Positions 2,710 to 60,188 of a stretch of DNA of 64,000 nt are shown one piece after another. How positions within the stretch are numbered: the stretch's first letter is position 1; each line of letters starts with the position of its first letter. The DNA lies in the IMG/VR virus record IMGVR_UViG_3300034082_003579; one strand, written 5' to 3'. The position numbers and the translations under genes were made by a program. The stretch is from a virus (Duplodnaviria > Heunggongvirae > Uroviricota > Caudoviricetes). A model generated the notes under the pieces. The model did not search any database and was not told the DNA's origin. It was given only the letters and a program-made list of their open reading frames with translations.

Positions 2710-2710
2710 T

Positions 2711-6153: not shown

Positions 6154-6236
6154 ACTTCATCGGTGATCAGTCATTACTGCGTTGCATTTACTAGAAATTT
6201 TGAGGTGCAAGTGCAAGATTTCTTTGAAATTATAAA

Positions 6237-27072: not shown

Positions 27073-27513
27073 TTACTCTTGTTCTGCTTTGTATGCGTCC
27101 AATGCTCGCTGATAGCGATTGGCATGTGAGCGTTCTGCTTTGGCCAATGTCTCAAACCAATCAGCAACTTCGTCAAAGCCTTCGTCGCGAGCAGTTTTAG
27201 CCATGCCTGGATACATATCTGTGTACTCATGGGTTTCGCCATGAATAGCTGCTTCCAATGCTTCCTGTGGTGTTGTGCCTGGCATACCTGTTCCGGGTTC
27301 GCCAGCTCCGCCGTTGATCAAGAATTCCATGTGACCGTGAGCATGTCCTGTTTCACCTTCGGCAGTGGAACGAAACAAGGCAGCTACATCGGGCGCACCT
27401 GCTACATCGCACAAGTTTGCAAAATACAAATAACGGCGATTGGCCATTGACTCACCTGCAAATGCTTCTTTTAGACATTCTGCGGTTTTACTTCCTTTTA
27501 GACTTTCTGACAT
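27073..27513 (-). CDS. rubrerythrin/ferritin-like diiron protein
   Basis: [13 protein letters not shown] and ERSHANRYQ diiron ligands; start set at MSESLK with AAGGAG RBS (the ORF track extends to 27585). Confidence 0.65.
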
Positions 27514-28179: not shown

Positions 28180-28478
28180 TGGGCGACATAGCAGAACTAA
28201 TCAGCAAGTACGGATTTCCTATTGTGGCTGCAGCGGGAATGGGCATGATGATCAAGTATGTGTGGACCTGGGCCACAACCGAAATCAAGCCAGTTATCAG
28301 TGATGCCAATACAGTTTTGATCGCTCTTATTGATCGTATCCGTATGTTAGATAACGATTTAATCAGACTCAATCAGAAAGTCAATACTGTGCTACACTTG
28401 CGTGGCAAAACTATTGAACATGAGCGTGTGGAAGCCGAAGACAAAATTAATCAAAAGATAATCGAAGATAAAAAATGA
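28179..28478 (+). CDS. small membrane protein, paralog of 27719..28000
   Basis: shared (D/E)LISxxGFPIxAA...D(N/R)(R/I)...L motif. Confidence 0.35.
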   Translation: MGDIAELISKYGFPIVAAAGMGMMIKYVWTWATTEIKPVISDANTVLIALIDRIRMLDNDLIRLNQKVNTVLHLRGKTIEHERVEAEDKINQKIIEDKK

Positions 28479-28816
28479 AATATCTTGCCGCAGCGTTGAT
28501 AGCCGTGACTTTAACTGGATGTAGCTTACTACCGCGAGCACATGATCCTGTTATGTTCGGACAATTGGTAGTATTGAGCCTACAAGTTGAACAGGTAGAT
28601 TGCGATCGACCCAATTGGCAACCGGCTATGCAGCAGTCGCAGGCCTTGTCACGGTATACAGCCTGGCGCCATGATCCGCAGGCTGACAATCTTGCAGGGC
28701 TATATAAACACGTAGAACGCATGAATCAAGGTGGTAGCAAGACATTCTGCGAACTGGGAAAGAGAACAGCAGCAGGAAGAATTTCAGCAGCACGGACAGC
28801 ATGGGAAGGAAGATGA
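28475..28816 (+). CDS. lipoprotein
   Basis: signal with lipobox LTGC. Confidence 0.4.
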   Translation: MKYLAAALIAVTLTGCSLLPRAHDPVMFGQLVVLSLQVEQVDCDRPNWQPAMQQSQALSRYTAWRHDPQADNLAGLYKHVERMNQGGSKTFCELGKRTAAGRISAARTAWEGR

Positions 28817-29055: not shown

Positions 29056-31146
29056 TCACTTGGTTGTAGCTATAAAAATTCCAGACCAGTCGGCTGGTAA
29101 CTTTTGTGTCTTTTGGAACTCGCAGCGTTCAATCCACATGTCATAGTAATCGGTCATTTGACCATCGAACTCTGATTTAAGTTCTTGACAAAGATCGATA
29201 GCTTGATCAAATTCCTGTGCTCGATACAGACGATGCATTTCGTCGTGTGTTGTCTGTGCCATTAAGTATTCTGTCATGGCACCTGCATCAGTATCTAATA
29301 CTGTGTGTATACCAACTCCGACTGATTTGCCTTTGACAGCCAAGTCATCAATCTTGAGAAACAAGAACGAATCGCCGCATTGCTTGACTGTGTTCTCTCC
29401 AACTAACAGTACACAACCATATTCTTTACACTTGCTTTCAATACGAGCTGCAGTACTTACAGCGTCACCCAACACATCATAACTGTGTCGTGCAGTTGAT
29501 CCCATTTCGCCGATGTAGCCTAGGCCTGTGTTGATACCTGCACCCATCTTGACCCCAGGGCGTCCTTTGGCTTCTAATTCTTGACTGAACTCTTTGACTG
29601 CTTGAACCATCTTGAGTCCCACTGCCACAGCAGTCTTTGCATGATCCGGATCATCTATAGGAGCGTTGTGTATGTGCATACTTGCATCACCAATGTACTT
29701 GATGATCATACCGTTGGCTTCTAGTATTGGTCGAGTGATAGCATCCATGTAGCCGTTCATGACTTCTGTTAGGCCTTTGACATCGTCCCCAAAACTTTCT
29801 CCCAGGGGTGTAAAGCCACGCAGGTCACTGAAGCAGATTGATACTTCTTTCTTGACACCGTCTTTGATTAGACTGGGATTCTCTTGCAGCAGTCGAACCA
29901 CAGTAGGTGAAGCATAGCCAGCAAACTGTTTCTTAATAGCCTGCTTCTGCAAAAACTCACTTACAAACTTAACACCATAAGCATGCAGAAGAACAAGACC
30001 CAAGCCCACAGCGATAGCACTACTATCCACGAGCCAACTATAAGCAGAAAACAAATATAAGCTACTACCGACACTGCCAGCAAGCACGACAACAGCAGAA
30101 ATAATTCCAACATAAACCCACCTTGTTAATATTAATAATATGATACTCAACACGACCAGTGCTACGATTTCAGCACCGTCTGCCCAGTCTGGTCTTTGGA
30201 TTGCAACACCGTTTAACAGGGTGCCTACCACTGCGGCCTGTACTGCATGAGGATGAACAGCACCTAAACTGGTTGCCACTGGATTACTGATACCAGCTGC
30301 AGTTGGACCTACAATGACCAGGGCACCATCAAACGATTCAGGTAACGTAGTTATAGTGGTTGAATGTGCAGTTTGGCTCCAATCAATCCATACCCGACCC
30401 AGGCTGTCAGTAGCAACAGGACCAAACTTGGGAATACGTATGCGTTCTACTCCTGACTCATTCAGTTTGACTTGAAATGTAGTATCAGATGCAGCCACTC
30501 GCATGATTTCAAATGCCAAGCTAGGGTACAAGTTATCGCCTACAGCAATCACCAACGGCATGCGTCTATTGACACCGTCTAATTCTGGCAAGGTATGAAC
30601 AGTTCCTACTCCCCGTGCCGATCGTTCTAATTCTAGGATGTTGGCGATCATGCCAGGATATGACACAATGCGATCCAAGTATTGCGATCCAATCACAGCA
30701 GATCCAGGTCTACGTGGAGTATTTTTATTTTGTTCAGCTGGAATATTAGGTAAGATTACCAGGTGCTTTTGCATTACAGACGACAATGCAGCATCGCCGC
30801 CGGCACGATCTGTTTCTGGCATCAGTACATTGAATACCACCAGACCAGCATCTCGGCGATACAGTTCTTCGATCAACTCAGCATATATTGTTCTGGGAAA
30901 GGGCCATTGGCCATGTTTGTTGATTGCAGCTTCGTCTATGTCCACAGTCCAAATTTCGTTGACAGTGGGAGACTGATTAACAATAAGTGTATCAAAATAT
31001 CGCAAGCGAACGCTTTCAACAAATGCAGGATCGGCCGCACGAATGCCTACAATCAAGGCCAGAGTAACAACCGCAGTCCAGGGACTTAGCAAGATCTTTT
31101 TTATCATAGGTTTATTTTGTAGTAGAGTCGCCAAACACGTACACAC
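29056..31146 (-). CDS. CHASE2 sensor-domain class III adenylate/guanylate cyclase
   Basis: 696 aa; N-terminal periplasmic domain plus TM helices; C-terminal ICFSDLRGFTPL...KYIGDASM cyclase homology domain. Confidence 0.7.
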   Translation of the reverse strand: MCTCLATLLQNKPMIKKILLSPWTAVVTLALIVGIRAADPAFVESVRLRYFDTLIVNQSPTVNEIWTVDIDEAAINKHGQWPFPRTIYAELIEELYRRDAGLVVFNVLMPETDRAGGDAALSSVMQKHLVILPNIPAEQNKNTPRRPGSAVIGSQYLDRIVSYPGMIANILELERSARGVGTVHTLPELDGVNRRMPLVIAVGDNLYPSLAFEIMRVAASDTTFQVKLNESGVERIRIPKFGPVATDSLGRVWIDWSQTAHSTTITTLPESFDGALVIVGPTAAGISNPVATSLGAVHPHAVQAAVVGTLLNGVAIQRPDWADGAEIVALVVLSIILLILTRWVYVGIISAVVVLAGSVGSSLYLFSAYSWLVDSSAIAVGLGLVLLHAYGVKFVSEFLQKQAIKKQFAGYASPTVVRLLQENPSLIKDGVKKEVSICFSDLRGFTPLGESFGDDVKGLTEVMNGYMDAITRPILEANGMIIKYIGDASMHIHNAPIDDPDHAKTAVAVGLKMVQAVKEFSQELEAKGRPGVKMGAGINTGLGYIGEMGSTARHSYDVLGDAVSTAARIESKCKEYGCVLLVGENTVKQCGDSFLFLKIDDLAVKGKSVGVGIHTVLDTDAGAMTEYLMAQTTHDEMHRLYRAQEFDQAIDLCQELKSEFDGQMTDYYDMWIERCEFQKTQKLPADWSGIFIATTK

Positions 31147-31522
31147 GCATCGGTGTACCCGACTTCAAGGCCCGGGCACTTCTGTGGTGTCCGTCTAATA
31201 TATAAAGTCTATTGTTTTTTTTGTAAACTACTGGCAAATCTTCATACTCATCAAACAAAGCACCATCACTACCGTAGTTGCTGAGCCAGTCTTGTGTGGC
31301 AAACAGCTGAGCAGGATTTACTGTAGCTACTTCAGGTTCAACTCCGGCTGCTATCTGTGCTTCTGCAGCCTGATGCAGTAGTCCGGCATCTAAATAATCG
31401 TCGGCCTTTTCGAATTCAGCAGTGTTGGGATCTAAATATTGACCTATGCGCAAATTAGTGCGCCATATGTTGGGATCTTGGGCAATTTCTGTTATTCTCA
31501 TAGTAGTAATATTTAGCCACAA
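31112..31522 (-). CDS. ParB/Srx-like nuclease-domain protein
   Basis: YILDGHHR motif; 3' end overlaps the cyclase start. Confidence 0.4.
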   Translation of the reverse strand: MWLNITTMRITEIAQDPNIWRTNLRIGQYLDPNTAEFEKADDYLDAGLLHQAAEAQIAAGVEPEVATVNPAQLFATQDWLSNYGSDGALFDEYEDLPVVYKKNNRLYILDGHHRSARALKSGTPMRVYVFGDSTTK

Positions 31523-31565: not shown

Positions 31566-32366
31566 TTATTTCCCAATCATCAACCCAGTCATATTGCTAG
31601 GCACAATAATGGTCTGTACCTTACCGTTCTTGACACCTTCGGAGATGTTAAGTGCTGCTTGTGCATTCATGTAAGCAATACTAGCCGAGCTTTGATTTGT
31701 AAGTGCTGCCATACGACGTGATTCTGCTTCGGCTGTTTTAACTTCAACTTCTTTTTGCAACAGCTCATTCTTAGCACGAACTAACTCGTTAGCACTAGCA
31801 ACCACCGAATCTGCAGGAGTAATCTGACGGATTAATACTTGTGTAATAGTAACCGAACCGTTGAGCTTTTCATCAGCAAGAGTTTGTGTGATAATGTCAC
31901 GCATTTCTTGTTCCATTGCAGCACGACTGTCGTTCATGGTCAGTGCATCATATCGACGTGCGGCCTTATAGGCAGCATTACGTGCGGCCTGTGCGATATA
32001 ATTGTACATCAAAAAGGTATCGCCGTTTTTATCGGTAGCATGGAAGCTGCGATTCTTTGTAGTGTAGAGTTCGCTAACTTGATTTGGATTGATGTTATAG
32101 ATAACAGTAACATCCATATCCTTCATTGTTGAATTGTCTTTGGCCAGCGGTGTCATATCGTTGACTGGGACAGACACATCGCGAACTGGGAACGTAAGAA
32201 CATCGCCGACCAGCGTTTGATTGAATGATCCTGGCATCAATTCGCCAGGTTTAACTTGTTTGTCAAAGCCAACACGTACACCAACTTCACCTGTTTCAAT
32301 TCGAGTGCAGCCAACAGTGGCAGCAACGAGACCAACAATAAGAGCCAATTTAAAAGTACGATTCAT
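31566..32366 (-). CDS. SPFH/band-7 (prohibitin/HflK-like) lipoprotein
   Basis: band-7 core; start set at MNRTFKLALIVGLVAATVGC lipoprotein signal (the ORF track extends to 32426). Confidence 0.65.
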   Translation of the reverse strand: MNRTFKLALIVGLVAATVGCTRIETGEVGVRVGFDKQVKPGELMPGSFNQTLVGDVLTFPVRDVSVPVNDMTPLAKDNSTMKDMDVTVIYNINPNQVSELYTTKNRSFHATDKNGDTFLMYNYIAQAARNAAYKAARRYDALTMNDSRAAMEQEMRDIITQTLADEKLNGSVTITQVLIRQITPADSVVASANELVRAKNELLQKEVEVKTAEAESRRMAALTNQSSASIAYMNAQAALNISEGVKNGKVQTIIVPSNMTGLMIGK

Positions 32367-32629
32367 ACGATTCCTTAGAATAAGATTACAATTGAGATTA
32401 AGACAGCCAATGCCAGTACAGAACAAAGTATACTATAGGCTGCAATTTTGGTCAACCGCCATTTTTCTTTACCTGTGGTCTTGCGAAATGCAGCGATACC
32501 AAACCAAAATAGGGCAGTTAAGATTAGAAAAGCCAGGAAAACTCGGATCATTATAGCCTCAAAGTTACTAATGAGCCTATATTATAGCAAAGATAAAGGG
32601 ACTGGTCAAGTCCCTTTGATAAAACATTA

Positions 32630-33622
32630 TTATTTTTTAATCAAGTTAGATTGAAATATTTGCCAGCAATTTTCCCAGGTCCATTTGTCGCCACTGGCTC
32701 TTACTATATCTCTGTTGAGCTGTAGTGCAAGGTCAATGGCAGTTGCTAAGTCATCGTGCATGTAACCGTTTATGCCCGGCTCTATTACATCCACAGGTCC
32801 AGTCACTGGATAGGCCGCAACCGGTGTCCCTAAACTGATGGCCTCAATCATCACAATGCCAAATGTGTCAACACGGCTGGGAAAAGCAAACACATCTGCT
32901 TGAACATAATAGTCGGCCAAGTCAGTGCCTTTCTTGTATCCCACAAACTCGACAGCAGGATATTGACGTTCTAAGCGCACACGATCAGGTCCATCGCCGA
33001 CTACAACCACACGATAGCGATCGCCCAACCGACACAGATCATCTAGTCCCTTTTCTACACTGACACGACCAGCATATAAAACCACAGGAACAGTATTGAT
33101 TGTATGTTCCAATGTGGCTTTTAGATGCATCCGATCTACTCCGCGTGTCCATGGTATCATATCCCAGGTAAATCCGTTTGCTTGCAATTCATCGACCATA
33201 GACTGGGTGGTAGTTAAGACTCGCCCACTGTGCTTGTGAAACCATCTCAAGTACCAGTATGTCCATTCAGTAGGAATACCGTAAATTTCATTTAAGAACT
33301 CTGGAAACTTGGTGTGGTAGCTGGTGTTATATCTGAGACCTTTGCGCCAGCAATAGTTACTACCGGCAACACCAATAGGTCCTTCAGTGGCAATGTGAAT
33401 ATAATCAGCGCCGCTGTCTTGGATCATTTGACCAATACCCCATGGCCAGGACAGTTTTACTTCTGCATATCCAGGACATCTGACATGGGGGAAACGACTG
33501 GGATCAATAAATTCAACTGTGTATCCGTTTTTGTGTGCTTGCTTTTCTAAATTATTAAATGTTGTTACTACACCATTCACTTGGTCGCAAAGATTGTCAG
33601 TGATGATTAAGATTTTTTGCAT
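32630..33622 (-). CDS. GT4-family glycosyltransferase
   Basis: 330 aa; GT-B layout with E..(7)..E region near the C-terminus. Confidence 0.7.
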   Translation of the reverse strand: MQKILIITDNLCDQVNGVVTTFNNLEKQAHKNGYTVEFIDPSRFPHVRCPGYAEVKLSWPWGIGQMIQDSGADYIHIATEGPIGVAGSNYCWRKGLRYNTSYHTKFPEFLNEIYGIPTEWTYWYLRWFHKHSGRVLTTTQSMVDELQANGFTWDMIPWTRGVDRMHLKATLEHTINTVPVVLYAGRVSVEKGLDDLCRLGDRYRVVVVGDGPDRVRLERQYPAVEFVGYKKGTDLADYYVQADVFAFPSRVDTFGIVMIEAISLGTPVAAYPVTGPVDVIEPGINGYMHDDLATAIDLALQLNRDIVRASGDKWTWENCWQIFQSNLIKK

Positions 33623-33700: not shown

Positions 33701-34543
33701 TCAAACGGAATCTCTACCCTGGCCGGTATGTCCTGCGAGTTGTTCACATGCACTGCTATCAACAATAGTATCCACATTGTCCTTCTCCTGCGTCCAAGTT
33801 ATGATTTCCCAACGACCGTCGTGATGTTCCACAAGTGCTGTACATGATTCAACCCAGTCACCGTCGTTCATGTATGTGATGCCATCTACCTGTTTAATTT
33901 CAGCATGATGAATGTGTCCGCATATGACTCCGTCGAACCCACGCTTCCGGCAGTACGTTGCTAAATTTTGTTCAAACTGAAATATAAAATCAATGGCTTT
34001 TTTAACACGCTTCTTTAGATACTGGCTGAGACTCCAATAACCAAATCCCATCTTGTGTCGGATCCAGTTGAAGCGGCTATTAATGCTGAGAACAATGTCG
34101 TAGGCTCGATCGCCTAAGAAACTGATCCACGGTGCCAGTCTAGTAATACCGTCAAACAGATCTCCGTGTGTGACCAGGTATCGTTGACCGTCAATACCTA
34201 CATGTGTTGCTTGATTTACAATTTCAATCTCACCGAAGCCAATACCATACGGTATCAGTGGGCGTAGAAACTCGTCATGATTTCCTGCTATGTATACTAT
34301 GTGTGTACCACGTTTGGCGTGACCTAGTATGCGACGAATCACATTACTATGACTTTGACGCCATCGCCAACGGTTTTGTTGTATCTTCCAAGCGTCAATA
34401 ATATCGCCTACAAGATACAGGGTTTCACAGGTGTTGTGTTTGAGAAAGTTGTTTAATTGATTGGCTTTACAATCTTTGGTACCTAAGTGGACGTCAGAAA
34501 TAAAAATTGATCTATAAGTTATTTCTAACATCCATTTTTCCAA
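33701..34543 (-). CDS. metallophosphoesterase (LpxH-like)
   Basis: ISDVHLG ... LVGDIID.W ... GNHDE. Confidence 0.55.
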   Translation of the reverse strand: MEKWMLEITYRSIFISDVHLGTKDCKANQLNNFLKHNTCETLYLVGDIIDAWKIQQNRWRWRQSHSNVIRRILGHAKRGTHIVYIAGNHDEFLRPLIPYGIGFGEIEIVNQATHVGIDGQRYLVTHGDLFDGITRLAPWISFLGDRAYDIVLSINSRFNWIRHKMGFGYWSLSQYLKKRVKKAIDFIFQFEQNLATYCRKRGFDGVICGHIHHAEIKQVDGITYMNDGDWVESCTALVEHHDGRWEIITWTQEKDNVDTIVDSSACEQLAGHTGQGRDSV

Positions 34544-34599: not shown

Positions 34600-35610
34600 T
34601 TACTTTGCGATCTTGGTCCAAACTTTGTTACGAATTTGGTCAGTTAACGTGTCTGGCAGTGCTACATAGTCCAGCTCTGATGCCATGGTCTTACCGTTCT
34701 TAAATGCCCAGTCAAAAAACTCGATGACTTCAGCTGAGGCTTTTGGATCAGCAGGTTTGGCATATACTAATATAAAACTGGCACCGGCAATAGGCCAACT
34801 CTTAGCACCGGCAGCATCTATAATACTGATACCCATACCTGGCTTACTGAACCAATCAGCGTCGGCTGCTGCAGCGGCAAATGATTCTTCGTTGGGATTT
34901 ACATAGTGTCCATCACGATTCTGCAATTGAAGGTATTTGATATTGTTCTTTTTAGCATAGGCGTATTCCACATAGCCAATAGCACCTTTAACTCGCGTCA
35001 CGTTAGCAGCGACACCTTCGTTGCCTTTACCACCAACTGAACTGGCTGCAGGCCATTTGACAGCATTGCCTTTGCCAACACTGTCTGCCCAGGATTTGCT
35101 GACTGTAGTCAAATAGTCAGTGAAGTGATAGGTAGTGCCGGATCCGTCAGCACGATGTACCACTGTGATATTTTGATCGGGCAGTCTCTTGCCTGGATTT
35201 AGTGCTGCTATCTTAGCGTCATTCCATTTTGTGATTGTGCCTTGATAAATGTCAGCTAACACTGGTCCAGTTAGTCTCAGTTCGCCTTGCTTGAAACCGT
35301 CCAAGTTAGCAATTGGAACGACTCCGCCAAGAATGGCTGGAAACTGTAGTAAGCCATTCTTGTCCAACGCATCACCTGATACAGGAGCATCACTTGCACC
35401 AAACATTACAGTCTTGTTGACAATTTGTCTAACACCACCGGAACTGCCAATTGATTGATAATTGAATCTGATACCTGTTTCTTTGTTGTAAACTTCTGCC
35501 CATTTGGCATAGATGGGATATGGAAATGTTGCACCGGCGCCTGTGATTTGTTGTGCCGATGCTGCGAATGTGGATGCTGCTAGTAATAGTAATGCCAATA
35601 TCTTTTTCAT
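34600..35610 (-). CDS. pstS: phosphate-binding protein PstS
   Basis: signal peptide; QITGAGATFPYPIYAKWA and ADGSGTT blocks typical of PstS. Confidence 0.85.
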   Translation of the reverse strand: MKKILALLLLAASTFAASAQQITGAGATFPYPIYAKWAEVYNKETGIRFNYQSIGSSGGVRQIVNKTVMFGASDAPVSGDALDKNGLLQFPAILGGVVPIANLDGFKQGELRLTGPVLADIYQGTITKWNDAKIAALNPGKRLPDQNITVVHRADGSGTTYHFTDYLTTVSKSWADSVGKGNAVKWPAASSVGGKGNEGVAANVTRVKGAIGYVEYAYAKKNNIKYLQLQNRDGHYVNPNEESFAAAAADADWFSKPGMGISIIDAAGAKSWPIAGASFILVYAKPADPKASAEVIEFFDWAFKNGKTMASELDYVALPDTLTDQIRNKVWTKIAK

Positions 35611-35682: not shown

Positions 35683-36774
35683 TTATTTTTGTACAATTGT
35701 AATTACTGTATTGCCGCCTTGGTTTACTTGTTGTTTGACTTGTACTCCGCCTTGATTGATATTGATCACAGCATTGGACTCTGTGCTGACAGTGACTTCG
35801 GCAATATGACCCGGTCGCCGATATAGAGTAATTTTACTTTTGTCATCGTTGAAGTAATATCCGATGTTGGTGGCAGGATTATAATTGGGCAGAATATTTT
35901 TTTCGAAAGCATTGCCCAGTGTTGTTTTATTCTGTGCCGACAATTCGTCTGTTTCAGCTAGAGCCAATAGATCGACTTCTAAGTCATTGCGATCGATTGC
36001 GTTCTTTTCGTCTAACTCATTCTTATCCAACTCTTTAAATGCCAACAAATCCACGTCAAGCTCATTCTTATCCAACTCAGTCTTGTCCGACCGATACGCA
36101 GTTTCTTTAATTTCCGCCGGCGGACTTACAATCAACATGTTGTTGATGTTGGCCTGATCAATTGAAATCACGGCAGGGGTAGACGGAGCCGAATTCAAAC
36201 TGTTGACCACTGTAGCTTGATAGGCCACATCCAACAACACACTTCCTGCTTCGTTGGAAACTAAGATGGCACCAGTCACACACCCTTTTTTATCGCAGCT
36301 GGGCAATAACATAACCAAACTACGACCCAATTCATCCACGGTCATGGAAAAGTCTGTGCCACGCACTGCTACAGTAGCAGTGGGAGTTCGTACGTTGACT
36401 GCCTGTGGATTATTTTTAGCAATCTGGCCAGACGCATAGCGTGCTGTGCCCAGTGCAACTCGCATGGCCAACTTGCCTGTGCCTTTTGAAGCGTCGTATA
36501 CAAAGTCATCAATCACCAACTTACTCTGCTCAGTTATTTTGACCGTGGTTTTATCGTCAAACGACAAAGTAACACGACTTTTAGCAGTGGTCACTGTGTC
36601 CTGCATCTCAACTGCTGTGTTGATCGAACTCTCAACACTTTTTTTGTTTCTTAGAATTTCTGTAGGGCCAGTCTGCTCAGTTACTCGCCCTACAGGAGCT
36701 GCAGAATTAATTGGACTGAGTAACAGTAATAGCGTTGTTGTTACCAGTCGAAGTAATAGTTGCTTGTTGTGCAT
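35683..36774 (-). CDS. FecR-domain secreted protein
   Basis: signal peptide; ATVAVRGTDFSMTV FecR-type motif. Confidence 0.45.
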   Translation of the reverse strand: MHNKQLLLRLVTTTLLLLLSPINSAAPVGRVTEQTGPTEILRNKKSVESSINTAVEMQDTVTTAKSRVTLSFDDKTTVKITEQSKLVIDDFVYDASKGTGKLAMRVALGTARYASGQIAKNNPQAVNVRTPTATVAVRGTDFSMTVDELGRSLVMLLPSCDKKGCVTGAILVSNEAGSVLLDVAYQATVVNSLNSAPSTPAVISIDQANINNMLIVSPPAEIKETAYRSDKTELDKNELDVDLLAFKELDKNELDEKNAIDRNDLEVDLLALAETDELSAQNKTTLGNAFEKNILPNYNPATNIGYYFNDDKSKITLYRRPGHIAEVTVSTESNAVININQGGVQVKQQVNQGGNTVITIVQK

Positions 36775-37318
36775 TGGTTCCGCCTTGTGTCAAGCTGATG
36801 GTATTGCCACCGAGTGCTATTCCGCCAGTGACAGTTATGATTCCAGAATGTGCACCAGAACCTGACGTGGTATGTGTCACTGTGTTCTCATCTCCAGTGA
36901 TCAAGATCTCACTGTGTTGAGTAGCAGATGCAACCAAGTTTTGTGTCACTGTGTTGTTGTCACCAGTGACTTGTTGTTTGATGAAACTGCTGCCGCATGT
37001 GGCACTGTTGGCAGTGCCACAATTGATCACCTGTGTGTTGTTACTGCCAGTGGTGGTCACAGTTGCAGTGATTGCAGCACCATTGATGATCATGTCCAAG
37101 GTATTAGAGCTACCAATTTGATCAATAGTTACTATATTGGCATCGCCTTTGATTATAGAAGGCGTGCCTTCGTCACCTACACGATTACTGCTGCCATCCT
37201 GCGTTATAGTAACAGTGGCACCAGACCCTACTTGTTCTATATAAACATCATTTGCTTGAGCTGTAGTCACCCAAGCCAGGGCAGCGATTACTGCCATTAT
37301 TCCAAAACGTTTAAGCAT
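36707..37318 (-). CDS. curlin-repeat (CsgA/CsgB-like) secreted protein
   Basis: signal peptide then tandem S/N/Q/G/T-rich ~22-aa repeats of curlin type; adjacent to csgG/csgF homologs. Confidence 0.45.
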   Translation of the reverse strand: MLKRFGIMAVIAALAWVTTAQANDVYIEQVGSGATVTITQDGSSNRVGDEGTPSIIKGDANIVTIDQIGSSNTLDMIINGAAITATVTTTGSNNTQVINCGTANSATCGSSFIKQQVTGDNNTVTQNLVASATQHSEILITGDENTVTHTTSGSGAHSGIITVTGGIALGGNTISLTQGGTNAQQATITSTGNNNAITVTQSN

Positions 37319-37334
37319 TTCTTGCTCCTTTTTA

Positions 37335-38117
37335 TTATTTCTTAAAGCGCCATAGACCTGAACGTTCCCCGCTCATGATCATTTCATACACAGCTTGCTC
37401 GATGGCCACACGTACTGCATAAGTTGTGGGTTCATTTAAGGTTGCACCGTTTTCTAATTCTATGCTTTTGGTAGCAGAGTCAAAGAATTTAAGTGCGCCC
37501 AGGCTATGAGCTGTACTGTATATTGTTTTGGAGATACTGTTGCTGATCAACACTTCTCCCGAGTTAACTGATATGAGTCTAATGCTCACTACTACTTCGT
37601 CAACTCGATACTGTTGGCTTCCGCCTATGCCCATAATTCTGGCACCGTTGCCGCCTGTTCTAATGTTGCTGTCATATCCAATGATACCACCTTCGATTAT
37701 GAGTCCGGCAACTGTCATAGGCTTGAGAGGCTTGGCATCTTTACCTTCGTAAATTTCTCGTTGATTACGTATCAACTGACGTTCCTTGATAAGGTTGTCT
37801 AGACCCACCCGCTCAACCACACGAAACCATCCTGGCACATCCTTTAGGCTCTTGATCAAGAACACTTCGGCACCTTGTGTCACTGCCTTGCTGAATACAG
37901 CCAACTTTTCATTGGGTTTCAACTGTCCTGTCTTGTCTGAGAAGCCGTATACTGCCACAGTGATTACAGGACCATCTAGCGGAGGAATCTTTTCAATCAG
38001 ACTCACTCGTGGTTTAATTTCTACAGGCTCCTCACGAGCTGCATTCATGTGAATCTGAGCGCACCCGCTGACTAAAGCAAGTACAAGTATGGCTAAGATA
38101 CGCATGTTAAAACGCAA
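37335..38117 (-). CDS. csgG: curli production/transport lipoprotein CsgG
   Basis: lipobox LVSGC; ITVAVYGFSDKTGQ matches the CsgG hallmark block. Confidence 0.8.
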   Translation of the reverse strand: MRFNMRILAILVLALVSGCAQIHMNAAREEPVEIKPRVSLIEKIPPLDGPVITVAVYGFSDKTGQLKPNEKLAVFSKAVTQGAEVFLIKSLKDVPGWFRVVERVGLDNLIKERQLIRNQREIYEGKDAKPLKPMTVAGLIIEGGIIGYDSNIRTGGNGARIMGIGGSQQYRVDEVVVSIRLISVNSGEVLISNSISKTIYSTAHSLGALKFFDSATKSIELENGATLNEPTTYAVRVAIEQAVYEMIMSGERSGLWRFKK

Positions 38118-38556
38118 AGCTCGCTATTGGAACAGTGATCTCTGTTCTATTGCCGTTGGCTTCTATTACAGTCAAGGTCACTGTGCTGCCATTCTTAAAC
38201 CAAGTAATGCTACTACCTTGAAAATCCAACGTTCCGGTATCTCGACCAGATTCTCCAAACATGTTGTCAGCCAACTGTTTACTCAACTGAGCATAAATTC
38301 TTGATTCTAAGTTTACAATAAACTTTGACAAGGTTGTATTTTTAGCATCACGTTCGGCCTTGTCTCGGGCTGCTTGTTCAGCATCGTTAATTTTTTGTCG
38401 ACGTTGCGATTCTAATTGTTCTATGGTCAACACATGTGCTGAATAGCCCTGGCCTGAAAAGGCAGGGCTAGAAAATTGATGCACCAATTCGCTGGCCTGT
38501 GTACTGCCGCCTACGACCGTTAGTGCCAGCATGACTGCTGTCAATACGGTTCTCAT
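38107..38556 (-). CDS. csgF: CsgF-like curli assembly protein
   Basis: signal peptide; ELVHQFSSPAFSG N-terminus resembles the CsgF QFRNPNFGG block; overlaps the csgG start. Confidence 0.45.
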   Translation of the reverse strand: MRTVLTAVMLALTVVGGSTQASELVHQFSSPAFSGQGYSAHVLTIEQLESQRRQKINDAEQAARDKAERDAKNTTLSKFIVNLESRIYAQLSKQLADNMFGESGRDTGTLDFQGSSITWFKNGSTVTLTVIEANGNRTEITVPIASFAF

Positions 38557-38643
38557 TGTAAACGCTCCTGTTATTTTTTTTACCTGCTTTATATTTAATC
38601 ATACCTCAAAATTAGTTATGTACACACAAAGAAAAATCCTACC

Positions 38644-38668
38644 GAAGTAGGATTTTTCTTGTACGCTA
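38644..38668. terminator. terminator downstream of the ompA-like gene
   Basis: aaaaatcctaccgaagtaggattttt. Confidence 0.6.
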
Positions 38669-38680
38669 AAGAGTGTACGC

Positions 38681-39229
38681 TTACTTGATTGCAGTGATGA
38701 CTACTCGTCGGTCTGGTGCCAGACATGATTTGAAACGTTCAAAGTTTTTCATTCCAGTACAAAGTTTTGTACCTTCGGTTGGCTGTGTTGCTCCAACACC
38801 TTGAGTGACAAATTTAGATTTGAATCCAGACTTGGCATTCAGATAATCGCCTACCGCACCTGCACGTTGCTGACTCAATCGAAGATTGTAAGCAGCAGTG
38901 CCAATACGATCAGTGTGACCAACCACGGTCACTGTGCTGCCTGGAGCGATGGTTGATGCCAACTGATCCAGTGCTGCACGACCTGCTGGTGTAAGTGCTG
39001 CTGAATCAAACTCAAACAACACATCACCATTGATAGTGACAGGCGCACGTTCTGCAACAGGATCACATCCCTTGACTGCATCAGCAGCGGTATAAGTTCC
39101 TGTATGCAAGCAAAGTCCGGAACCTGTCTTGACAATCTCACCTGAACCATCTGTTACATATCCTGGCCGGCCTTGAGCAATGGCCAGGATTGTGACAGCG
39201 GATAACATGACGGCTAATAATGCTTTCAT
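38681..39229 (-). CDS. OmpA-family peptidoglycan-associated protein
   Basis: VTVVGHTDRIGTAAYNLRLSQQRA OmpA C-terminal domain signature. Confidence 0.7.
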   Translation of the reverse strand: MKALLAVMLSAVTILAIAQGRPGYVTDGSGEIVKTGSGLCLHTGTYTAADAVKGCDPVAERAPVTINGDVLFEFDSAALTPAGRAALDQLASTIAPGSTVTVVGHTDRIGTAAYNLRLSQQRAGAVGDYLNAKSGFKSKFVTQGVGATQPTEGTKLCTGMKNFERFKSCLAPDRRVVITAIK

Positions 39230-39243
39230 TGTTATCCTTTAGA

Positions 39244-40407
39244 TTAGAACTGGTGACGCAAGCCAACACCGACTACAGTGCTCTTGGCAGTGTCAACAGT
39301 AGCCAGGTTATCCATGTAACTCACGTAAGCATACGCATTGGTGCGCTTGGTGAAATCATATGTATAGCCCAGGTTGTAAGCTGACTGATTCTGTGCATTG
39401 TAAACATCTTTCATGTTGGTGTTGGGAGTCAACAAGGTCCAGCTGACCATGACACGGCTTGTGGCGTTGACTGGAACTGTGGCACCCAGCAAGTAGCTGT
39501 TGTAACCCATGTTCTGATCAAAGATCACTTCGCCTGTGTTGTTGGATGGATTGCCATTCAAGTTAACACCAGCACCGGTAGCACCGTTGCCCTGACCCAG
39601 AATGTAACCACCGCGTGTCTGACCGTAAGCTGCTGACAATTTAACAACTTTCAGATCATATGCACCACCCAAGTTCCATGAACTGGGGTTGCTCTGACTG
39701 ATTGATGCCGAAGGTGCATAAATCTTGTCATAGGACAAAGCAGCGTAAACAGGGCCATTGGTGTAGTTGGCACCCAATGACAGCTGGCGAACGTTGTTGT
39801 TGGTTTCAAAGTTGTAACCACTGGAACCGGCTACTGCACTAGCACCGTCGATTGCTGTGTTGCTCATGCCATTAGCAAATGAGTAAGCAGCACCTGCACG
39901 GAATCCTGCCATCGAGGGTGACTGATATTTGACAGCATTGCTCATGCGCAAGGTATTGGCTGCACCGAATGCTGCACCAATGTTGGCTTGTCCAAAGCCT
40001 TGACTGAACGGGTCAACTGCACCAAAATAGTCAGTGGCCAAGTTGTATTGACGACCGATACGGGCCAAGCCCCAAGCATCGTTTTCCACACCCAAGTAAG
40101 CCTGACGACCAAACAGTCGATTAGATTGACCGTTGGTACCATTACCTAATTCAAATCCGTTTTCTAAAACAAAAGTAACGCGGTTACCGTTGCCAATGTC
40201 TTCAACGCCACGCAGACCAAAACGGTTGCCACTTTGTACGCCGTATGCTGCACCAAAGTTTGATGCAGACGCACCTTGCAAGCTCACTGTTTGATAACGA
40301 ATTCCAGCATCTAGAATGCCGTACAAGGTAACAGATGATTGAGCTGTAGCTGCAAAGCTCAGGCCCATTGTGGCCGTTAGTACTGCTAGTTTATGAGTAA
40401 CTTTCAT
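39244..40407 (-). CDS. Gram-negative porin
   Basis: signal peptide; beta-strand-alternating composition; C-terminal ...GLRHQF (terminal Phe). Confidence 0.6.
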   Translation of the reverse strand: MKVTHKLAVLTATMGLSFAATAQSSVTLYGILDAGIRYQTVSLQGASASNFGAAYGVQSGNRFGLRGVEDIGNGNRVTFVLENGFELGNGTNGQSNRLFGRQAYLGVENDAWGLARIGRQYNLATDYFGAVDPFSQGFGQANIGAAFGAANTLRMSNAVKYQSPSMAGFRAGAAYSFANGMSNTAIDGASAVAGSSGYNFETNNNVRQLSLGANYTNGPVYAALSYDKIYAPSASISQSNPSSWNLGGAYDLKVVKLSAAYGQTRGGYILGQGNGATGAGVNLNGNPSNNTGEVIFDQNMGYNSYLLGATVPVNATSRVMVSWTLLTPNTNMKDVYNAQNQSAYNLGYTYDFTKRTNAYAYVSYMDNLATVDTAKSTVVGVGLRHQF

Positions 40408-40504
40408 TACTTCTCCTTTAAAGTTTTAAAAATGTGTATATATTTATAGACAAGTAAGTATATAACAAAATAACAGGGTTGTCAAATATTTCGAACACAC
40501 AAGG

Positions 40505-40535
40505 AAAAAAAGCCCACCGAAATGGGCTTGGTGGT
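40505..40535. terminator. terminator-like hairpin upstream of the porin gene
   Basis: aaaaaagcccaccgaaatgggcttggtggtttt. Confidence 0.45.
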
Positions 40536-40766
40536 TTTAGTTACAAGGTATTTCCTACCCCGGTAGTGATCACGCCGCTAGACGTTCTGCTACAAAGCTA
40601 TCTTCGTTTGCTTTTATTGGTTTTTTACTTTTAACGACTATCTGTGTCGAGTTGTCCATGCCGTTACTTGTTGCCCAATCGAAACCTGGTCAGCCCCATC
40701 AGAAGCATTCTAAACTCTTTCTCATCTCTTGAACAATCGTCATCAGTTACTTGAGGAGAATGCTTT

Positions 40767-40800
40767 TGGTGGAGCTGGAGGGAATCGAACCCTCGTCTTG
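40767..40800 (-). other. tRNA 3'-half-like fragment (T-arm + acceptor + CCA), no 5' partner
   Basis: revcomp reads gagggttcgattccctc-cagctcc-a-cca; no complementary 5' acceptor strand found within 350 nt. Confidence 0.3.
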
Positions 40801-40833
40801 AACACTTTTCTCTTTACTTCATACAACAATTCT

Positions 40834-41046
40834 TTACAGTAAAAAAACCGCCGAACCCAGCAACACAATCAACACTGCAATAACTACAGCAAGTCGAATT
40901 GCATTTTTAAATTCTTTGTCGGGCATGGAAACTTCTTCCACTGCAGGTTTTTCCACCTGAGTTTTTACAGGTTCAGCATCAGCAGTTAGAGAAAGATACA
41001 CAAGATAAACTGCTGCTAATATTCCTAATATGATAAAGATCTTCAT
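40834..41046 (-). CDS. small membrane protein
   Basis: 70 aa, two hydrophobic helices. Confidence 0.3.
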   Translation of the reverse strand: MKIFIILGILAAVYLVYLSLTADAEPVKTQVEKPAVEEVSMPDKEFKNAIRLAVVIAVLIVLLGSAVFLL

Positions 41047-41050
41047 AAAA

Positions 41051-41293
41051 TTATTTATTCTCTACTTCCGGCGGACGTTCACGACGATCCAAGGTCCTGG
41101 GTTTGAGCAGATAATCACGACCAATATTGCCTGCTTCGATTTCTCTAATGGCAGTAACCACAAGATCGTTTTTGCACTGCACTGTAGGAAACCATCCGCG
41201 TTTGAGTTCACGTACACGTCTAGCAGCAATTAACACTAGATCATACTGGTTGCCTACAGCTAGAGCAGCTCGCTGACTGGTAATTCTGGCCAT
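41051..41293 (-). CDS. rpoZ: RNA polymerase omega subunit homolog
   Basis: MARITSQRAALAVGNQYDLVLIAARRVRELK aligns with E. coli RpoZ [31 protein letters not shown]; start set at the internal Met of the longer track ORF. Confidence 0.7.
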   Translation of the reverse strand: MARITSQRAALAVGNQYDLVLIAARRVRELKRGWFPTVQCKNDLVVTAIREIEAGNIGRDYLLKPRTLDRRERPPEVENK

Positions 41294-45917: not shown

Positions 45918-47033
45918 TTGATGCTTATAAATAAATTTTTAATTGGTGACAAAATGTCTTTTATATGTAAAGCGCCGTGGACTAGTATTGCTTTTCAACC
46001 AACCGGTGTTGCTCCTTGTTGCATGTATCAGCTTGATGAACTAGAAGAATTCCGCAGCGACGGGAAACTTTTCCAAAAAATACGAGATTCATTTACTGAC
46101 GGAATTGTTCCCACTGGTTGCGTTCGATGTTCTAGTCGAGTAAATCAAGGAAATGAAGAATCGGCTTACTTCAAATCATTTAATCATTACACAACCAATT
46201 TTTCTACTCAGTCTATTCAAGAAATAAATCTAAGGTCAAATAATTTTTGTAATTTAGCATGCCGAAGTTGCGGCCCACATTTTAGTTCTAAGTGGGAAAA
46301 AGAATTTAAAGAAACAATCGTTATTACCAAAGACTCGGACGTATTTTCTAAGATTGATACTTTAGATCTATCTGTACTCAAAACTATAGTATTCGCCGGC
46401 GGCGAACCAACTATTGTACCTGAGCATGTCCAACTGTTGAAAAAACTAATATCTATTAATCATACTCGGGTTAATATTCGAGTAGCTACAAATTTACAAA
46501 CATTAACAAACAAGAATGTTAACTTAATTGACTTATGGAAGAATTTTCCAAATCTTATATTACATATAAGCATTGATGCAGTCGGTAATAATGCCGTTAA
46601 TATTAGATCAGGAACCAATTGGGAGACAATGGTATCTAACATAGAAAAAGTTAGTAAAAATAATATAGATTTTAATTTTGCTATTACTGTAAGTGCATTG
46701 AATATCTGGTTTCTAGAAAAAACGCTTGACTATCTAACAGAAACATTTCCAAAAAACAATAAATTATTACAATTACTTAATACACCAGACATATTAGATA
46801 TCTCGGTTATTCCGCCAAAATACCGAGACTCGATAAATCAAATGCTTAAATCATGCCAGCAAAAAAAATACGAAGTTAATCACATTAAACATTATTTTGA
46901 TAATAATGATACCTCTCAATTTTGGCAAAATTTTTTAACCTATAATCTATTTTTAGATGTAAATCGCCAAGAAAATTTTTGTCAATCTTTGCCGATATAT
47001 GATCAACTGATGATAGACTGGGTACATCTTTAA
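45918..47033 (+). CDS. radical SAM domain protein (paralog of 3962..5380)
   Basis: CNLACRSCGP CxxxCxxC motif; embedded in the tRNA island. Confidence 0.6.
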   Translation: MMLINKFLIGDKMSFICKAPWTSIAFQPTGVAPCCMYQLDELEEFRSDGKLFQKIRDSFTDGIVPTGCVRCSSRVNQGNEESAYFKSFNHYTTNFSTQSIQEINLRSNNFCNLACRSCGPHFSSKWEKEFKETIVITKDSDVFSKIDTLDLSVLKTIVFAGGEPTIVPEHVQLLKKLISINHTRVNIRVATNLQTLTNKNVNLIDLWKNFPNLILHISIDAVGNNAVNIRSGTNWETMVSNIEKVSKNNIDFNFAITVSALNIWFLEKTLDYLTETFPKNNKLLQLLNTPDILDISVIPPKYRDSINQMLKSCQQKKYEVNHIKHYFDNNDTSQFWQNFLTYNLFLDVNRQENFCQSLPIYDQLMIDWVHL

Positions 47034-47062: not shown

Positions 47063-47136
47063 TGGCGTATCCCCGAGGACTCGACCCTTGACTAGCGGTT
47101 TTGGAGACTGATATGCTGCCATTACATTAGAGACAC
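47063..47136 (-). tRNA. degenerate tRNA-Trp-like (CCA anticodon loop), possible pseudogene
   Basis: anticodon region cagtctccaaaaccgc is homologous to the Trp gene at 54559 but its 5' stem is mutated (3/5 pairs); T-loop gtcgagt. Confidence 0.35.
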
Positions 47137-48443: not shown

Positions 48444-48896
48444 ATGGCAAACAAAGACTATAAAGAAATGAGCGCAAGCGAAAAGAAAAAAGAAGATTGG
48501 ATGAATTCAAAATGGCGTCCAATGATGGGTTGGATGTACATGGCAGTGTGTATGGCTGACTTTGTGCTGTTTCCAGTTCTCTGGAGCCTGGTACAAGCAG
48601 CACACGGCGGCAGTGTACAAACACAATGGAGTCCAATTACCTTGCAAGGCGCAGGATTATTCCACATGGCCATGGGTGCTATTTTGGGTATCGCAGCATT
48701 CGGACGCACACAAGAAAAAATAGCCGGTGCCAACAATGGCGGAATGGCTGCAGCACCTGCGGTCAGTTCGTTCTCTGCACAACCAACAAACAGTTTTAGC
48801 GCATCTGCACCTACCATAGCACCTGTGAGTTTCAGCAGCGGCGGAATTGCAGCAGGCAAAGCTCGTCCAGCTGAATTTGATCATCCGGCAATTTAA
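48444..48896 (+). CDS. membrane protein, putative holin
   Basis: 150 aa with 2-3 TM helices, immediately upstream of the endolysin. Confidence 0.4.
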   Translation: MANKDYKEMSASEKKKEDWMNSKWRPMMGWMYMAVCMADFVLFPVLWSLVQAAHGGSVQTQWSPITLQGAGLFHMAMGAILGIAAFGRTQEKIAGANNGGMAAAPAVSSFSAQPTNSFSASAPTIAPVSFSSGGIAAGKARPAEFDHPAI

Positions 48897-49137
48897 TAAG
48901 GAAAACAAAATGAAATTAATATACTCAACTATTTTAGCACTGAGCCTTGTTGCTGGTGCTCACGCACAAGACACCAAACCTGCCGAAAACAAAGGCGAAA
49001 AGAAAGAAGTCTGTACTGATGTCAAAGACAAGGCCGGTGCTGTGGTCAAGAACAAAGACGGCACGGTCAAACAGTCTTGCAAAACTATCACTGTGCGCAA
49101 GAAATACGAAGGTACTGCAGTGCCTGACAAAAAATAA
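48847..49137 (+). CDS. secreted small Lys-rich protein
   Basis: signal peptide MKLIYSTILALSLVAGAHA. Confidence 0.35.
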   Translation: MQQAKLVQLNLIIRQFNKENKMKLIYSTILALSLVAGAHAQDTKPAENKGEKKEVCTDVKDKAGAVVKNKDGTVKQSCKTITVRKKYEGTAVPDKK

Positions 49138-49150
49138 GGAGTACTAATAC

Positions 49151-50005: not shown

Positions 50006-50009
50006 TATC

Positions 50010-58239: not shown

Positions 58240-60188
<1,949 letters not shown>

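Follow-up and report, generated by a model that had tools for sequence, protein, structure and literature searches.

The viral record IMGVR_UViG_3300034082_003579 of IMG/VR (Caudoviricetes) provides a stretch of 64,000 nucleotides, hereafter the window, in which positions 35683-40407 hold a block of minus-strand genes for curli secretion and outer-membrane proteins. The core of this block is a viral type VIII secretion system (T8SS) module, a new example of a known element and not a new type of system. We consider it probable that the block, which lies on a phage genome, is built in two layers: the conserved viral T8SS module and a set of envelope-directed cargo genes specific to the lineage. 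The genes are intact and conserved in order, their products are targeted to the Sec or lipoprotein pathway, and they are under selection and reside on phage genomes. The window itself is probably an accessory region of a large phage of the jumbo class, to judge from relatives found on contigs of 159-364 kb.

An initial annotation of this DNA had assigned six minus-strand open reading frames (ORFs) to the block, encoding a FecR-domain protein, a curlin-repeat protein, CsgG, a CsgF-like protein, an OmpA-family protein, and a porin. All six are present where they had been placed, all score above the Pfam gathering thresholds (Table 1), and the six-gene observation is correct and far above chance expectation. 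The accompanying remark that curli secretion is unusual cargo for a phage is outdated. The module is the subject of three papers, and a search of related phages, as the annotation had proposed, finds it annotated in Pelagibacter phage HTVC008M and Methylophilales phage Melnitz and abundant in IMG/VR.

A viral T8SS module and its relatives

Phage T8SS modules have so far been treated as a trait of marine phages that infect SAR11 and OM43 bacteria without curli of their own. They were first reported in pelagimyophages by Zaragoza-Solas et al. (2020), who proposed a role in "sibling capture" and reported freshwater fonsimyophages without the operon (PMC7029224). For Melnitz, Buchholz et al. (2022) suggested that a gated pore sets the timing of lysis (PMC9004378). 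Wittmers et al. (2022) described the viral T8SS as CsgF, CsgG, CsgA/B, FecR, a second CsgA/B, and an adenylate cyclase, showed its transfer between phage families, and found its transcripts in marine metatranscriptomes; they also placed FecR and the cyclase outside bacterial curli operons and reported viral modules to be without CsgE and CsgD (PMC9599517). The GenBank records of HTVC008M and Melnitz follow the same order, with CsgF, CsgG, a curlin-repeat protein, a FecR-domain protein, a second curlin or hypothetical protein, and an adenylate/guanylate cyclase.

We assigned protein identities in the window by Pfam gathering scores, NCBIfam equivalog cut-offs, and PDB sequence searches, with the Pfam scan covering the 20 proteins between 25.4 and 43.4 kb. 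On inspection of the sequences, each of the envelope proteins of the block begins with a signal peptide or a lipobox. The csgF gene comes first, and its stop codon abuts the csgG start (38107/38105). The csgG start is the ATG at 38105 used by gene callers, the exact 256-residue product of which occurs on 8 metagenome contigs; a TTG start at 38117 was rejected because the resulting 260-residue version is not on record. CsgG aligns over its full length with Escherichia coli CsgG (PDB 3x2r, E = 1e-44), and no match to CsgF was found among PDB sequences. Directly after CsgG, the curlin protein contains several NxVxIxQxGxxN repeats (Curlin_rpt, 39.3 versus a cut-off of 20.7 bits) and has a weak NCBIfam match to CsgB. 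Neither CsgE nor CsgD has a Pfam match among the 20 proteins scanned.

The constriction loop of CsgG reads KPNEKLAVFS in the window and KPYPASNFS in E. coli, and is thus one residue longer. In the E. coli numbering, Tyr51 is replaced by Asn and Asn55 by Val, and Phe56 is retained. The window-type loop is nearly invariant across the phage family, and such conservation of a variant loop among phages implies purifying selection and points to a functional channel with altered pore chemistry.

That the constriction loop is unlike that of E. coli is also compatible with the Melnitz proposal, derived from structure modelling and synteny (PMC9004378), in which CsgG, with or without CsgF, would act as a gated secretin or pinholin-like pore that triggers lysis. 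We regard such a lysis-timing device as very unlikely in the window. A canonical holin-endolysin cassette lies 10 kb away on the plus strand (48444-50450), which makes an extra lysis pore unneeded; its holin (phrog_3427; GTA_holin_3TM) and endolysin (phrog_181, 1.7e-76; with a PG_binding_1 domain) genes occupy 48.4-50.0 kb, and the gene after them encodes a possible spanin that has a signal-peptide motif. An outer-membrane lipoprotein such as CsgG cannot depolarise the inner membrane, and the conserved curlin, FecR, and cyclase genes would have no explanation.

At the nucleotide level, a megablast with 30-42 kb as the query returned no matches in a collection of 50,697 phage records; the wider distribution of the block emerged from protein-level searches only. 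By tblastn against cultured phages, the CsgG of the window matches that of HTVC008M at 48.7% and those of four Methylophilales phage Melnitz isolates at 47%, and a scan of IMG/VR with the same protein found CsgG relatives encoded on at least 595 viral stretches, on contigs of up to 364 kb. For comparison we used 91 loci (numbered with the prefix L), composed of 80 IMG/VR loci that were kept, those of the two cultured phages, and those of the population to which the window belongs. CsgF and CsgG are encoded in 91/91 of these, the curlin protein in 85/91, FecR in 84/91, and the cyclase in 66/91, with most of the cyclase-less loci ending at contig ends. The gene order is constant: CsgF is directly upstream of CsgG, and curlin, FecR, and cyclase follow downstream.

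Around this constant order, the identities to the window are mosaic. The relative L073, on a 159.5-kb contig, matches at 89% for CsgF, 95% for CsgG, 91% for curlin, 92% for FecR, 93% for the porin, and 95% for the OmpA-like protein, with most shared genes at 82-98%, and is without the LpxH-like, GT4, and SPFH genes. L014 (CsgG 91%) keeps PstS, LpxH-like, and GT4 genes and has an 85% porin downstream of the cyclase; an OmpA-like gene was not found in that locus. L012 and L013 share CsgG at 95% and other flanking genes at 73-96%, with the porin at 59% and the OmpA-like protein at 56%; in L012, the curli core as a whole is 81-95% identical but its porin and OmpA-like proteins only 56-59%. L101, on a 285-kb contig, is the reciprocal mosaic of L012, with CsgF at 41%, CsgG at 49%, curlin at 35%, and FecR at 47%, but the porin at 78%, the OmpA-like protein at 75%, PstS at 94%, and the cyclase at 88%. 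These comparisons show that exchange among relatives affects the curli core, the porin cassette, and the FecR-cyclase gap independently of one another, and that core and cassette have each been replaced as units in otherwise similar genomes. Replacement by units is what would be expected of modules in a phage gene pool, which argues against a one-off capture from a host.

The same question was addressed at the level of the window. The initial annotation had allowed that 27-40.5 kb might be a host-derived island, and this explanation holds that the segment is bacterial chromosome, either mis-assembled or recently captured by imprecise excision beside a tRNA or transfer-messenger RNA (tmRNA) attachment (att) site. 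Every product of the block is indeed a bacterial-type envelope protein, and a tmRNA gene adjoins it. However, the supposed tRNA 3'-fragment at 40767 belongs to a tmRNA gene, complete and of the permuted two-piece type, at 40479-40877 on the minus strand, called by both ARAGORN and Rfam (tmRNA_permuted 120 bits and beta_tmRNA 101 bits, both above gathering), with the tag peptide ANEDSFVAERLAA and its own terminator at 40510-40529. The att-like junctions suggested near 26.5-27 and 40.5-40.8 kb did not materialise, as a direct-repeat search of 25.5-43.5 kb returned only repeats of 14-35 nt, at chance level, many of them imperfect and none bracketing the block. Nor does composition mark the block as foreign. 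GC content, GC at third codon positions, and codon usage of the curli core, cargo, and cyclase fall inside the window's own spread; synonymous-codon fractions correlate with those of the remaining window at 0.92 for the curli core, 0.95 for the cargo genes, and 0.93 for the cyclase, against 0.925 ± 0.03 for six window genes drawn at random. Only the porin and OmpA-like genes deviate, and mildly, with a correlation of 0.84 and a GC content of 0.479 compared with 0.434 ± 0.040 for other genes. At least 17 contigs, assembled from many metagenomes independently, encode the identical porin protein, and those that are long enough repeat the same order at both of the questioned junctions (rpoZ-like, tmRNA, and porin at one; FecR, PstS, and onward to the cyclase at the other). 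With hundreds of IMG/VR viral contigs carrying the module, and with the nearest bacterial porin only ~65% identical and set in an unrelated tpiA-secG-nuo context without an OmpA-like gene, the island or chimera explanation is extremely improbable and largely refuted; for the curli core and the cyclase it fails on synteny across the 91 loci, the independent contigs, codon usage, and the lack of flanking repeats.

Table 1. Features of the block and its neighbourhood in the window
Feature	Position	Strand	Evidence
Sigma-70-like promoter TTGACA-17-TATACT, candidate site before the porin gene	40457-40485	-	Consensus scan, 11/12 matches
Porin, predicted general bacterial, trimeric, 16-strand type	39244-40407	-	Porin_4 4e-47, Porin_1 2e-16
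OmpA-C-like small secreted peptidoglycan-binding protein	38681-39229	-	Pfam OmpA 2e-19, residues 71-155
Intrinsic-terminator-like hairpin with T-rich tail	38632-38657	-	-18.4 kcal/mol, z -6.35
CsgF-like protein with signal peptide, T8SS channel accessory subunit	38107-38556	-	Pfam CsgF 2e-17, full profile
CsgG lipoprotein, lipobox LVSGC, outer-membrane T8SS channel	37335-38105	-	Pfam CsgG 4e-52
Secreted curlin-repeat protein, CsgA/B-like presumed fibre subunit	36707-37318	-	Pfam Curlin_rpt 6e-10
Secreted FecR-domain protein	35683-36774	-	Pfam FecR 8e-12
PstS periplasmic phosphate-binding protein	34600-35610	-	NCBIfam PstS equivalog, 409 versus cut-off 339 bits
LpxH-like metallophosphoesterase, family level only	33701-34531	-	Pfam Metallophos
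GT4-family glycosyltransferase	32630-33622	-	Pfam Glycos_transf_1 and Glyco_transf_4
Terminator-like hairpin 3' of the GT4 gene	32595-32617		Terminator scan
SPFH/Band_7 lipoprotein, lipobox TVGC	31566-32366	-	Pfam Band_7 1e-22; 266-residue call taken from independent contigs
136-residue protein directly upstream of the cyclase	31112-31522	-	Weak ParB-like nuclease match, ParBc_2 4.5e-4, below cut-off
Membrane CHASE2-sensor class III adenylate-type cyclase, 683 residues	29056-31107	-	CHASE2 9e-37, Guanylate_cyc 2e-18

The porin-OmpA cassette and the likely host

The gene immediately upstream of the curli core encodes a small OmpA-like protein, itself preceded by a porin gene. As the initial annotation had it, the porin ends in Phe (C terminus ...GLRHQF); it carries a signal peptide, matches Porin_4 over residues 10-367 (162 versus a cut-off of 27 bits), and has betaproteobacterial porins as its PDB relatives, namely 8wv0, PorB, and Omp32 (8wv0, 4aui, and 1e54 matched). 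The assignment of its partner to the OmpA family holds for the C-terminal peptidoglycan-binding domain, but the protein has only 182 residues and no beta-barrel. Residues 56-179 alone align, either to OmpA positions 219-345 or to isolated C-terminal domains (best PDB match to OmpA C-terminal domains 6e-23), and the best full-length NCBIfam match is a Bordetella-type small OmpA, below the cut-off. A role as an RmpM-type porin partner finds no support in the sequence, given the weak match to RmpM (1r1m) of 1e-6 versus 6e-23.

Although each of these two genes had been described as lying behind its own terminator hairpin, the spacer between them is 14 nt long and has no hairpin inside it. The hairpins instead lie upstream of the porin promoter, where the tmRNA gene terminates, and downstream of the OmpA-like gene. 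The latter hairpin, for which 0/200 shuffled sequences fold as well, separates the porin-OmpA unit from csgF, and the promoter-like site (40485-40457) lies between the tmRNA terminator and the porin. A shared promoter-like site, the 14-nt spacer, and a terminator after the second gene indicate a single bicistronic porin-OmpA cassette apart from the csgF unit. Transcription of this cassette by the host polymerase would be consistent with its sigma-70-like promoter.

The porin also provides a signal for the host. It is 57-63% identical to porins of Sheuella amnicola and of freshwater Alcaligenaceae/Burkholderiaceae metagenome-assembled genomes, and in a search of 5.8 billion proteins it is ~65% identical to bacterial-type matches that include a named Zwartia sp. 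porin. Sheuella belongs to the Alcaligenaceae, and Zwartia to the freshwater GKS98 cluster of that family (PMC10535154). Taken together, the Alcaligenaceae affinity of the porin, the Bordetella-type OmpA, and the beta-type two-piece tmRNA make a freshwater Alcaligenaceae-like betaproteobacterium the likely host. One of the 65% matches sits in a chromosomal context of tpiA-secG-usp-porin-nuoA-G with a GC content of 0.52, and no OmpA-like gene was found beside the porin in the bacterial loci examined, which indicates that the porin-OmpA pair was assembled in the phage lineage. Within the block, this cassette alone looks host-derived, and not recently so, given the divergence of the porin and its slightly raised GC content; it would trace back to the major porin of freshwater Alcaligenaceae-type hosts. 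No comparable porin exists in the 50,697 records of cultured or deposited phages, where the only matches are two of 27% in faecal fragments, and a literature search on phage-encoded porins or curli in freshwater jumbo phages found nothing relevant.

These features bear on another explanation, superinfection exclusion or receptor masking, in which the phage porin with its OmpA-like anchor would replace or dilute a host major porin presumed to be the receptor for this phage or its competitors, and curli would form a physical shield. The porin is a diverged homolog (~60-65%) of the major porin that candidate hosts encode on the chromosome, and its N- and C-terminal assembly signals are conserved; the near-consensus promoter is consistent with expression by the host polymerase, and the cassette has been swapped for a 59% allele where CsgG is 95% identical, as would occur under diversifying or host-specific selection. 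Protection from superinfection has also been proposed for viral T8SS modules (PMC9599517). However, porin loops diverge quickly in any lineage, so that the pattern does not discriminate; and cultured phages in the 50,697-record collection offer no precedent for a comparable porin. A lytic jumbo phage would, moreover, gain little time by exchanging outer-membrane proteins unless its latent period were long. On balance, we regard exclusion as an unlikely account of the block.

The FecR-cyclase pair and the cargo between them

Downstream of the curlin gene, the module continues with a FecR-domain protein and, beyond the cargo, a CHASE2 cyclase. An AlphaFold2 model of the FecR protein (28 homologs) comprises a FecR domain with a predicted local distance difference test score of ~80, an 85-residue disordered acidic linker, and a low-confidence beta-strand C terminus. 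Foldseek matches the modelled FecR domain to the cell-surface-signalling domain that PupR, an anti-sigma regulator, has in the periplasm (6ovk, E = 1.3e-5), which is a protein-protein interaction module. The model also has a weak local Foldseek match to a "cell surface anchoring domain" (PDB 5ix9, E = 4e-3, template modelling score 0.74, 63 columns).

The closest relatives of the cyclase in the PDB are bacterial class III adenylate cyclases such as CyaB (1e-20). Catalytic-motif alignment indicates that the window cyclase keeps both metal-binding Asp residues, the Lys/Asp adenylate-specificity pair, and the Arg, with Ser replacing the transition-state Asn, the residue roles being those of class III cyclases in general. 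Across the window and 51 related phage CHASE2 cyclases, there are two catalytic-motif subtypes. The first is canonical (K...T, GDxVNLASRLE), and the second, found in the window, Melnitz, and many other loci, has K...D and Ser at the position of the transition-state Asn (GDAVSTAARIES). The FecR gene runs 4 nt into the start of the cyclase gene in 14 loci, and in one more the two are separated by a 4-nt gap. This overlap argues for translational coupling of FecR and cyclase and for a functional pair.

Comparable pairs occur in bacteria, although a FecR-domain protein and a CHASE2 protein are not known to interact physically. The Burkholderia "BiofilmReg" operon pairs a periplasmic FecR-domain protein with a CHASE2 sensor (PMC5192318), and in Sinorhizobium meliloti the FecR-domain protein gene smc02177 is a target of the cyclic AMP (cAMP) regulator Clr, for which the cAMP is made by CHASE2 adenylate cyclases such as CyaD1, as well as CyaD2 and CyaK (PMC5498481). 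As in the window, the gene for a secreted FecR-domain protein adjoins that of a membrane protein with an extracytoplasmic CHASE2 domain, and the cAMP output in S. meliloti is also the output predicted for the window. The Burkholderia CHASE2 protein differs in being a histidine kinase, and its FecR protein carries LysM. Unlike these bacterial counterparts, the FecR protein of the window has a long disordered linker and a curlin-like C terminus and is embedded in a phage T8SS module.

The last ~30 residues of the FecR protein form a motif, ...NIxQDGxxVxQxVNxGGxTxITIxQK, that is conserved from marine to freshwater phages and resembles the last repeat of the adjacent curlin protein (hhalign of C terminus to C terminus, E = 1.4e-4, with a probability of only 52%). 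Pfam Curlin_rpt matched the C terminus of 1/28 members (E = 0.15). With no support from Pfam, the 52% hhalign probability, and low AlphaFold2 confidence, identification of this segment as a curlin repeat was not adopted and is kept as a lead only. Were the lead to hold, the FecR-domain protein, with its strand-turn-strand motif at the end of the disordered linker, might itself be a client or nucleator of the T8SS, such that its export or incorporation into the fibre would remove it from the CHASE2 domain that the coupled cyclase exposes in the periplasm and convert the state of secretion into a cAMP signal. We put this forward as a doubtful speculation. If true, it would amount to a secretion-coupled checkpoint with a logic like that of FlgM export, and the porin-OmpA cassette and the secreted and lipoprotein cargo would make the locus a phage kit for rebuilding the outer membrane.

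In loci in which FecR and cyclase do not overlap, the gap between them measures 0.1-7 kb and holds varied genes, many of them envelope-directed. Among its contents elsewhere are a secreted Thr/Gly-rich protein of 680-800 residues (12 loci), small secreted proteins and lipoproteins, a second curlin, secreted repeat proteins of 1100-1400 residues, a fatty-acid desaturase, and pairs of LpxH-like and GT4 genes. The gap of the window spans 4.6 kb and contains PstS, the LpxH-like enzyme, the GT4 glycosyltransferase, a 58-residue ORF, the SPFH protein, and the 136-residue gene. Of the neighbours named in the initial annotation, the glycosyltransferase, the SPFH protein, and the CHASE2 cyclase are each confirmed by Pfam, and PstS passes not only its NCBIfam equivalog but also TIGR00975 (370 versus 205 bits). 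The LpxH-like protein is a member of the metallophosphoesterase family but falls short of the LpxH equivalogs (49.6 versus 134 and 37.6 versus 190 bits). LpxH-like and GT4 genes are adjacent in at least five related phage loci (L014, L026, L048, L075/76, and L081; 45-81% and 48-61% identity), which suggests a two-gene lipid- or glycolipid-modifying unit. The 136-residue protein is 87-92% conserved in L073 and L101, and PstS occupies the gap position in close relatives only.

A genuine PstS in the cargo gap invites a reading of the block as a nutrient-uptake kit, in which a CsgG/CsgF channel without CsgE would be an open pore that, together with the porin and PstS, raises the influx of phosphate and other solutes, fibres being secondary or absent. 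Consistent with this, the block has no CsgE-like gene, a porin immediately precedes csgF in the clade of the window, and PstS is found near the module in L014, L073, L101, and L064/65/71 as well. An uptake role has been proposed for the viral module (PMC7029224 and PMC9599517), and cyanophage PstS offers a precedent (bioRxiv 10.1101/2021.07.20.453049). Such a kit nevertheless leaves the retention of curlin and CsgF in 85-91 of the 91 loci unexplained; PstS and porin are confined to few lineages, whereas the T8SS core is universal, and the CsgG constriction is narrow and conserved. We therefore consider uptake as the main purpose of the block to be decidedly unlikely.

Three further genes of the window encode a rubrerythrin (27073-27513, minus strand), a GDSL-like hydrolase (26558-26977, minus strand), and a small lipoprotein (28475-28816, plus strand). 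Homologs of the lipoprotein lie inside the FecR-cyclase gap of three other phage loci.

Proposed function, phage setting, and known systems

The general proposal of the initial annotation, that the phage remodels the host cell surface, remains the best reading of bacterial-type envelope and curli genes on a phage-like genome. In the two-layer model that we favour, the CsgG lipoprotein would form an outer-membrane channel capped by CsgF during infection, and the curlin protein, exported by Sec, would cross this channel to build curli-like fibres by polymerisation at the surface of the infected cell. Sensing of the envelope, with cAMP as the output, would fall to the FecR-domain protein paired with the CHASE2 cyclase. 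PstS, the LpxH-like enzyme, the GT4 glycosyltransferase, and the SPFH lipoprotein would have been inserted between these two genes. At the same time, the permeability and surface of the infected cell would be changed by the porin-OmpA cassette, PstS, and the lipid or glycan enzymes. We infer fibre secretion, cAMP signalling, and a benefit to the phage that may lie in aggregation or "sibling capture", in surface alteration or superinfection protection, or in the uptake of nutrients such as phosphate.

Several observations weigh against this model. To our knowledge, fibres, secretion, or cAMP production have been demonstrated experimentally for no phage T8SS. Replacement of the transition-state Asn by Ser may reduce the activity of a class III cyclase. 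CsgG falls far under the NCBIfam equivalog PRK15184 (161 versus 505 bits), and the absence of CsgE implies that gating and substrate delivery differ from those of E. coli. Many myophage modules carry two curlin genes and the window one: tblastn with second-copy curlins matched only 36707-37318 in the window, and the position that the second curlin frequently, though not universally, takes in myophages, between FecR and the cyclase, is occupied by the PstS, LpxH-like, GT4, SPFH, and 136-residue genes instead. The function of the porin cassette is entirely our inference. No clumping was seen in Melnitz-infected cells (Buchholz et al., PMC9004378). Finally, no capsid, terminase, tail, or packaging gene is present in the 64-kb window, and PHROG scans of ~40 ORFs from the window and its relatives returned no clear capsid, terminase, or tail gene, only a marginal "virion structural protein" in L023 (E = 3.9e-6). 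Without a structural gene in the window, its phage identity rests on its relatives, the lysis genes, the tRNA array, and the IMG/VR classification.

That tRNA array comprises 28 genes, all on the minus strand between 43433 and 56351, with small ORFs between them. A tRNA-Ile(tat) of 95 nt (53761-53855) called by ARAGORN is absent from the Rfam calls, and a tRNA at 47066-47136 called by Rfam was missed by ARAGORN. The window also encodes a thymidylate synthase, an HNH endonuclease, GroEL, and other PHROG families, and the best matches of its AAA ATPase are in jumbo phages (a PA5oct-like phage at 50.6%, then Phosso, Atu_ph07, and phage G).

An RNA polymerase omega-like protein is encoded in the window at 41051-41293 on the minus strand (RNA_pol_Rpb6 4e-10) and is 75-84% identical in L012, L073, and L101. 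GroEL is encoded at 58240-59862 on the minus strand and also in L028, and proteostasis genes occur near the curli module in the phage group (for example L028, L026, and L042), with Hsp20 in 37 loci and ClpS in 36; in relatives, a possible Clp-type AAA ATPase lies upstream of csgF. The 5 kb that precede csgF contain a gene for a ferredoxin-dependent bilin reductase in 27 loci and for a heme oxygenase in 25 (for example L037 6839-7537 and L080 6040-6621). At 1219-14399 the window holds a sugar- and glycan-modification set of carbamoyltransferase, radical SAM protein, aminotransferase, and nucleotide-sugar epimerase; a second radical SAM gene is found at 45918-47033, and a carbamoyltransferase also adjoins the curli region of HTVC008M.

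The basic picture of the viral T8SS is unchanged by these data, and our additions to the known module are modest: a probable freshwater betaproteobacterial jumbo-phage setting, a host-like porin-OmpA cassette, and modular exchange. Probable jumbo phages with freshwater Alcaligenaceae-type host signals would widen the host and habitat range of the module. The module is exchanged as a cassette among related phages, and the FecR-cyclase gap is a hot spot for envelope-directed cargo. The porin-OmpA cassette could serve as a handle for host prediction through comparison with chromosomal porins of hosts, and it presents a testable case of a lytic-type phage with a copy of its host's major outer-membrane protein. 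Culturable GKS98 hosts (Zwartia and Sheuella) might make the function of the block experimentally tractable.

Compared with the pelagiphage T8SS of HTVC008M, Melnitz, uncultured pelagimyophages, and HTVC023P-type podophages, the module of the window has the same genes in the same order, the same lack of CsgE, CsgC, and CsgD, a variable accessory region, and a CsgG that is 47-49% identical. Like Melnitz, it has a two-piece tmRNA a few kilobases from the curli module, reported as alphaproteobacterial-like in Melnitz and of beta type in the window. It differs in that the phage is probably jumbo, with relatives on contigs of 159-364 kb compared with ~141-147 kb for the cultured phages, and in that its host signal is betaproteobacterial and freshwater instead of SAR11 or OM43. 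The window also has one curlin gene and not two, the 4.6 kb of cargo that parts FecR from the cyclase, and a porin-OmpA cassette directly upstream of csgF.

With E. coli csgBAC/csgDEFG and the alphaproteobacterial csg clusters, the block shares the CsgG lipoprotein channel, CsgF, and a secreted Q/N/G-rich curlin-repeat subunit. Unlike these bacterial systems, it is without CsgE, CsgC/H, and CsgD, its CsgG has an altered loop and scores below the equivalog cut-off, and the module is linked to FecR and a CHASE2 cyclase.

The cargo has parallels of its own. Enterobacterial prophages reportedly encode porins, Lc in phage PA-2 and NmpC in DLP12, and these are lysogenic-conversion genes of temperate lambdoid phages. 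Like them, and like the PstS gene of cyanophages, the genes of the window are phage accessory homologs of a host general porin or phosphate-binding protein with their own expression signals. In contrast to the lambdoid prophages, this window shows nothing that would point to lysogeny, such as an integrase or an att site, and its porin is paired with an OmpA-C-like gene and adjoins a T8SS module.

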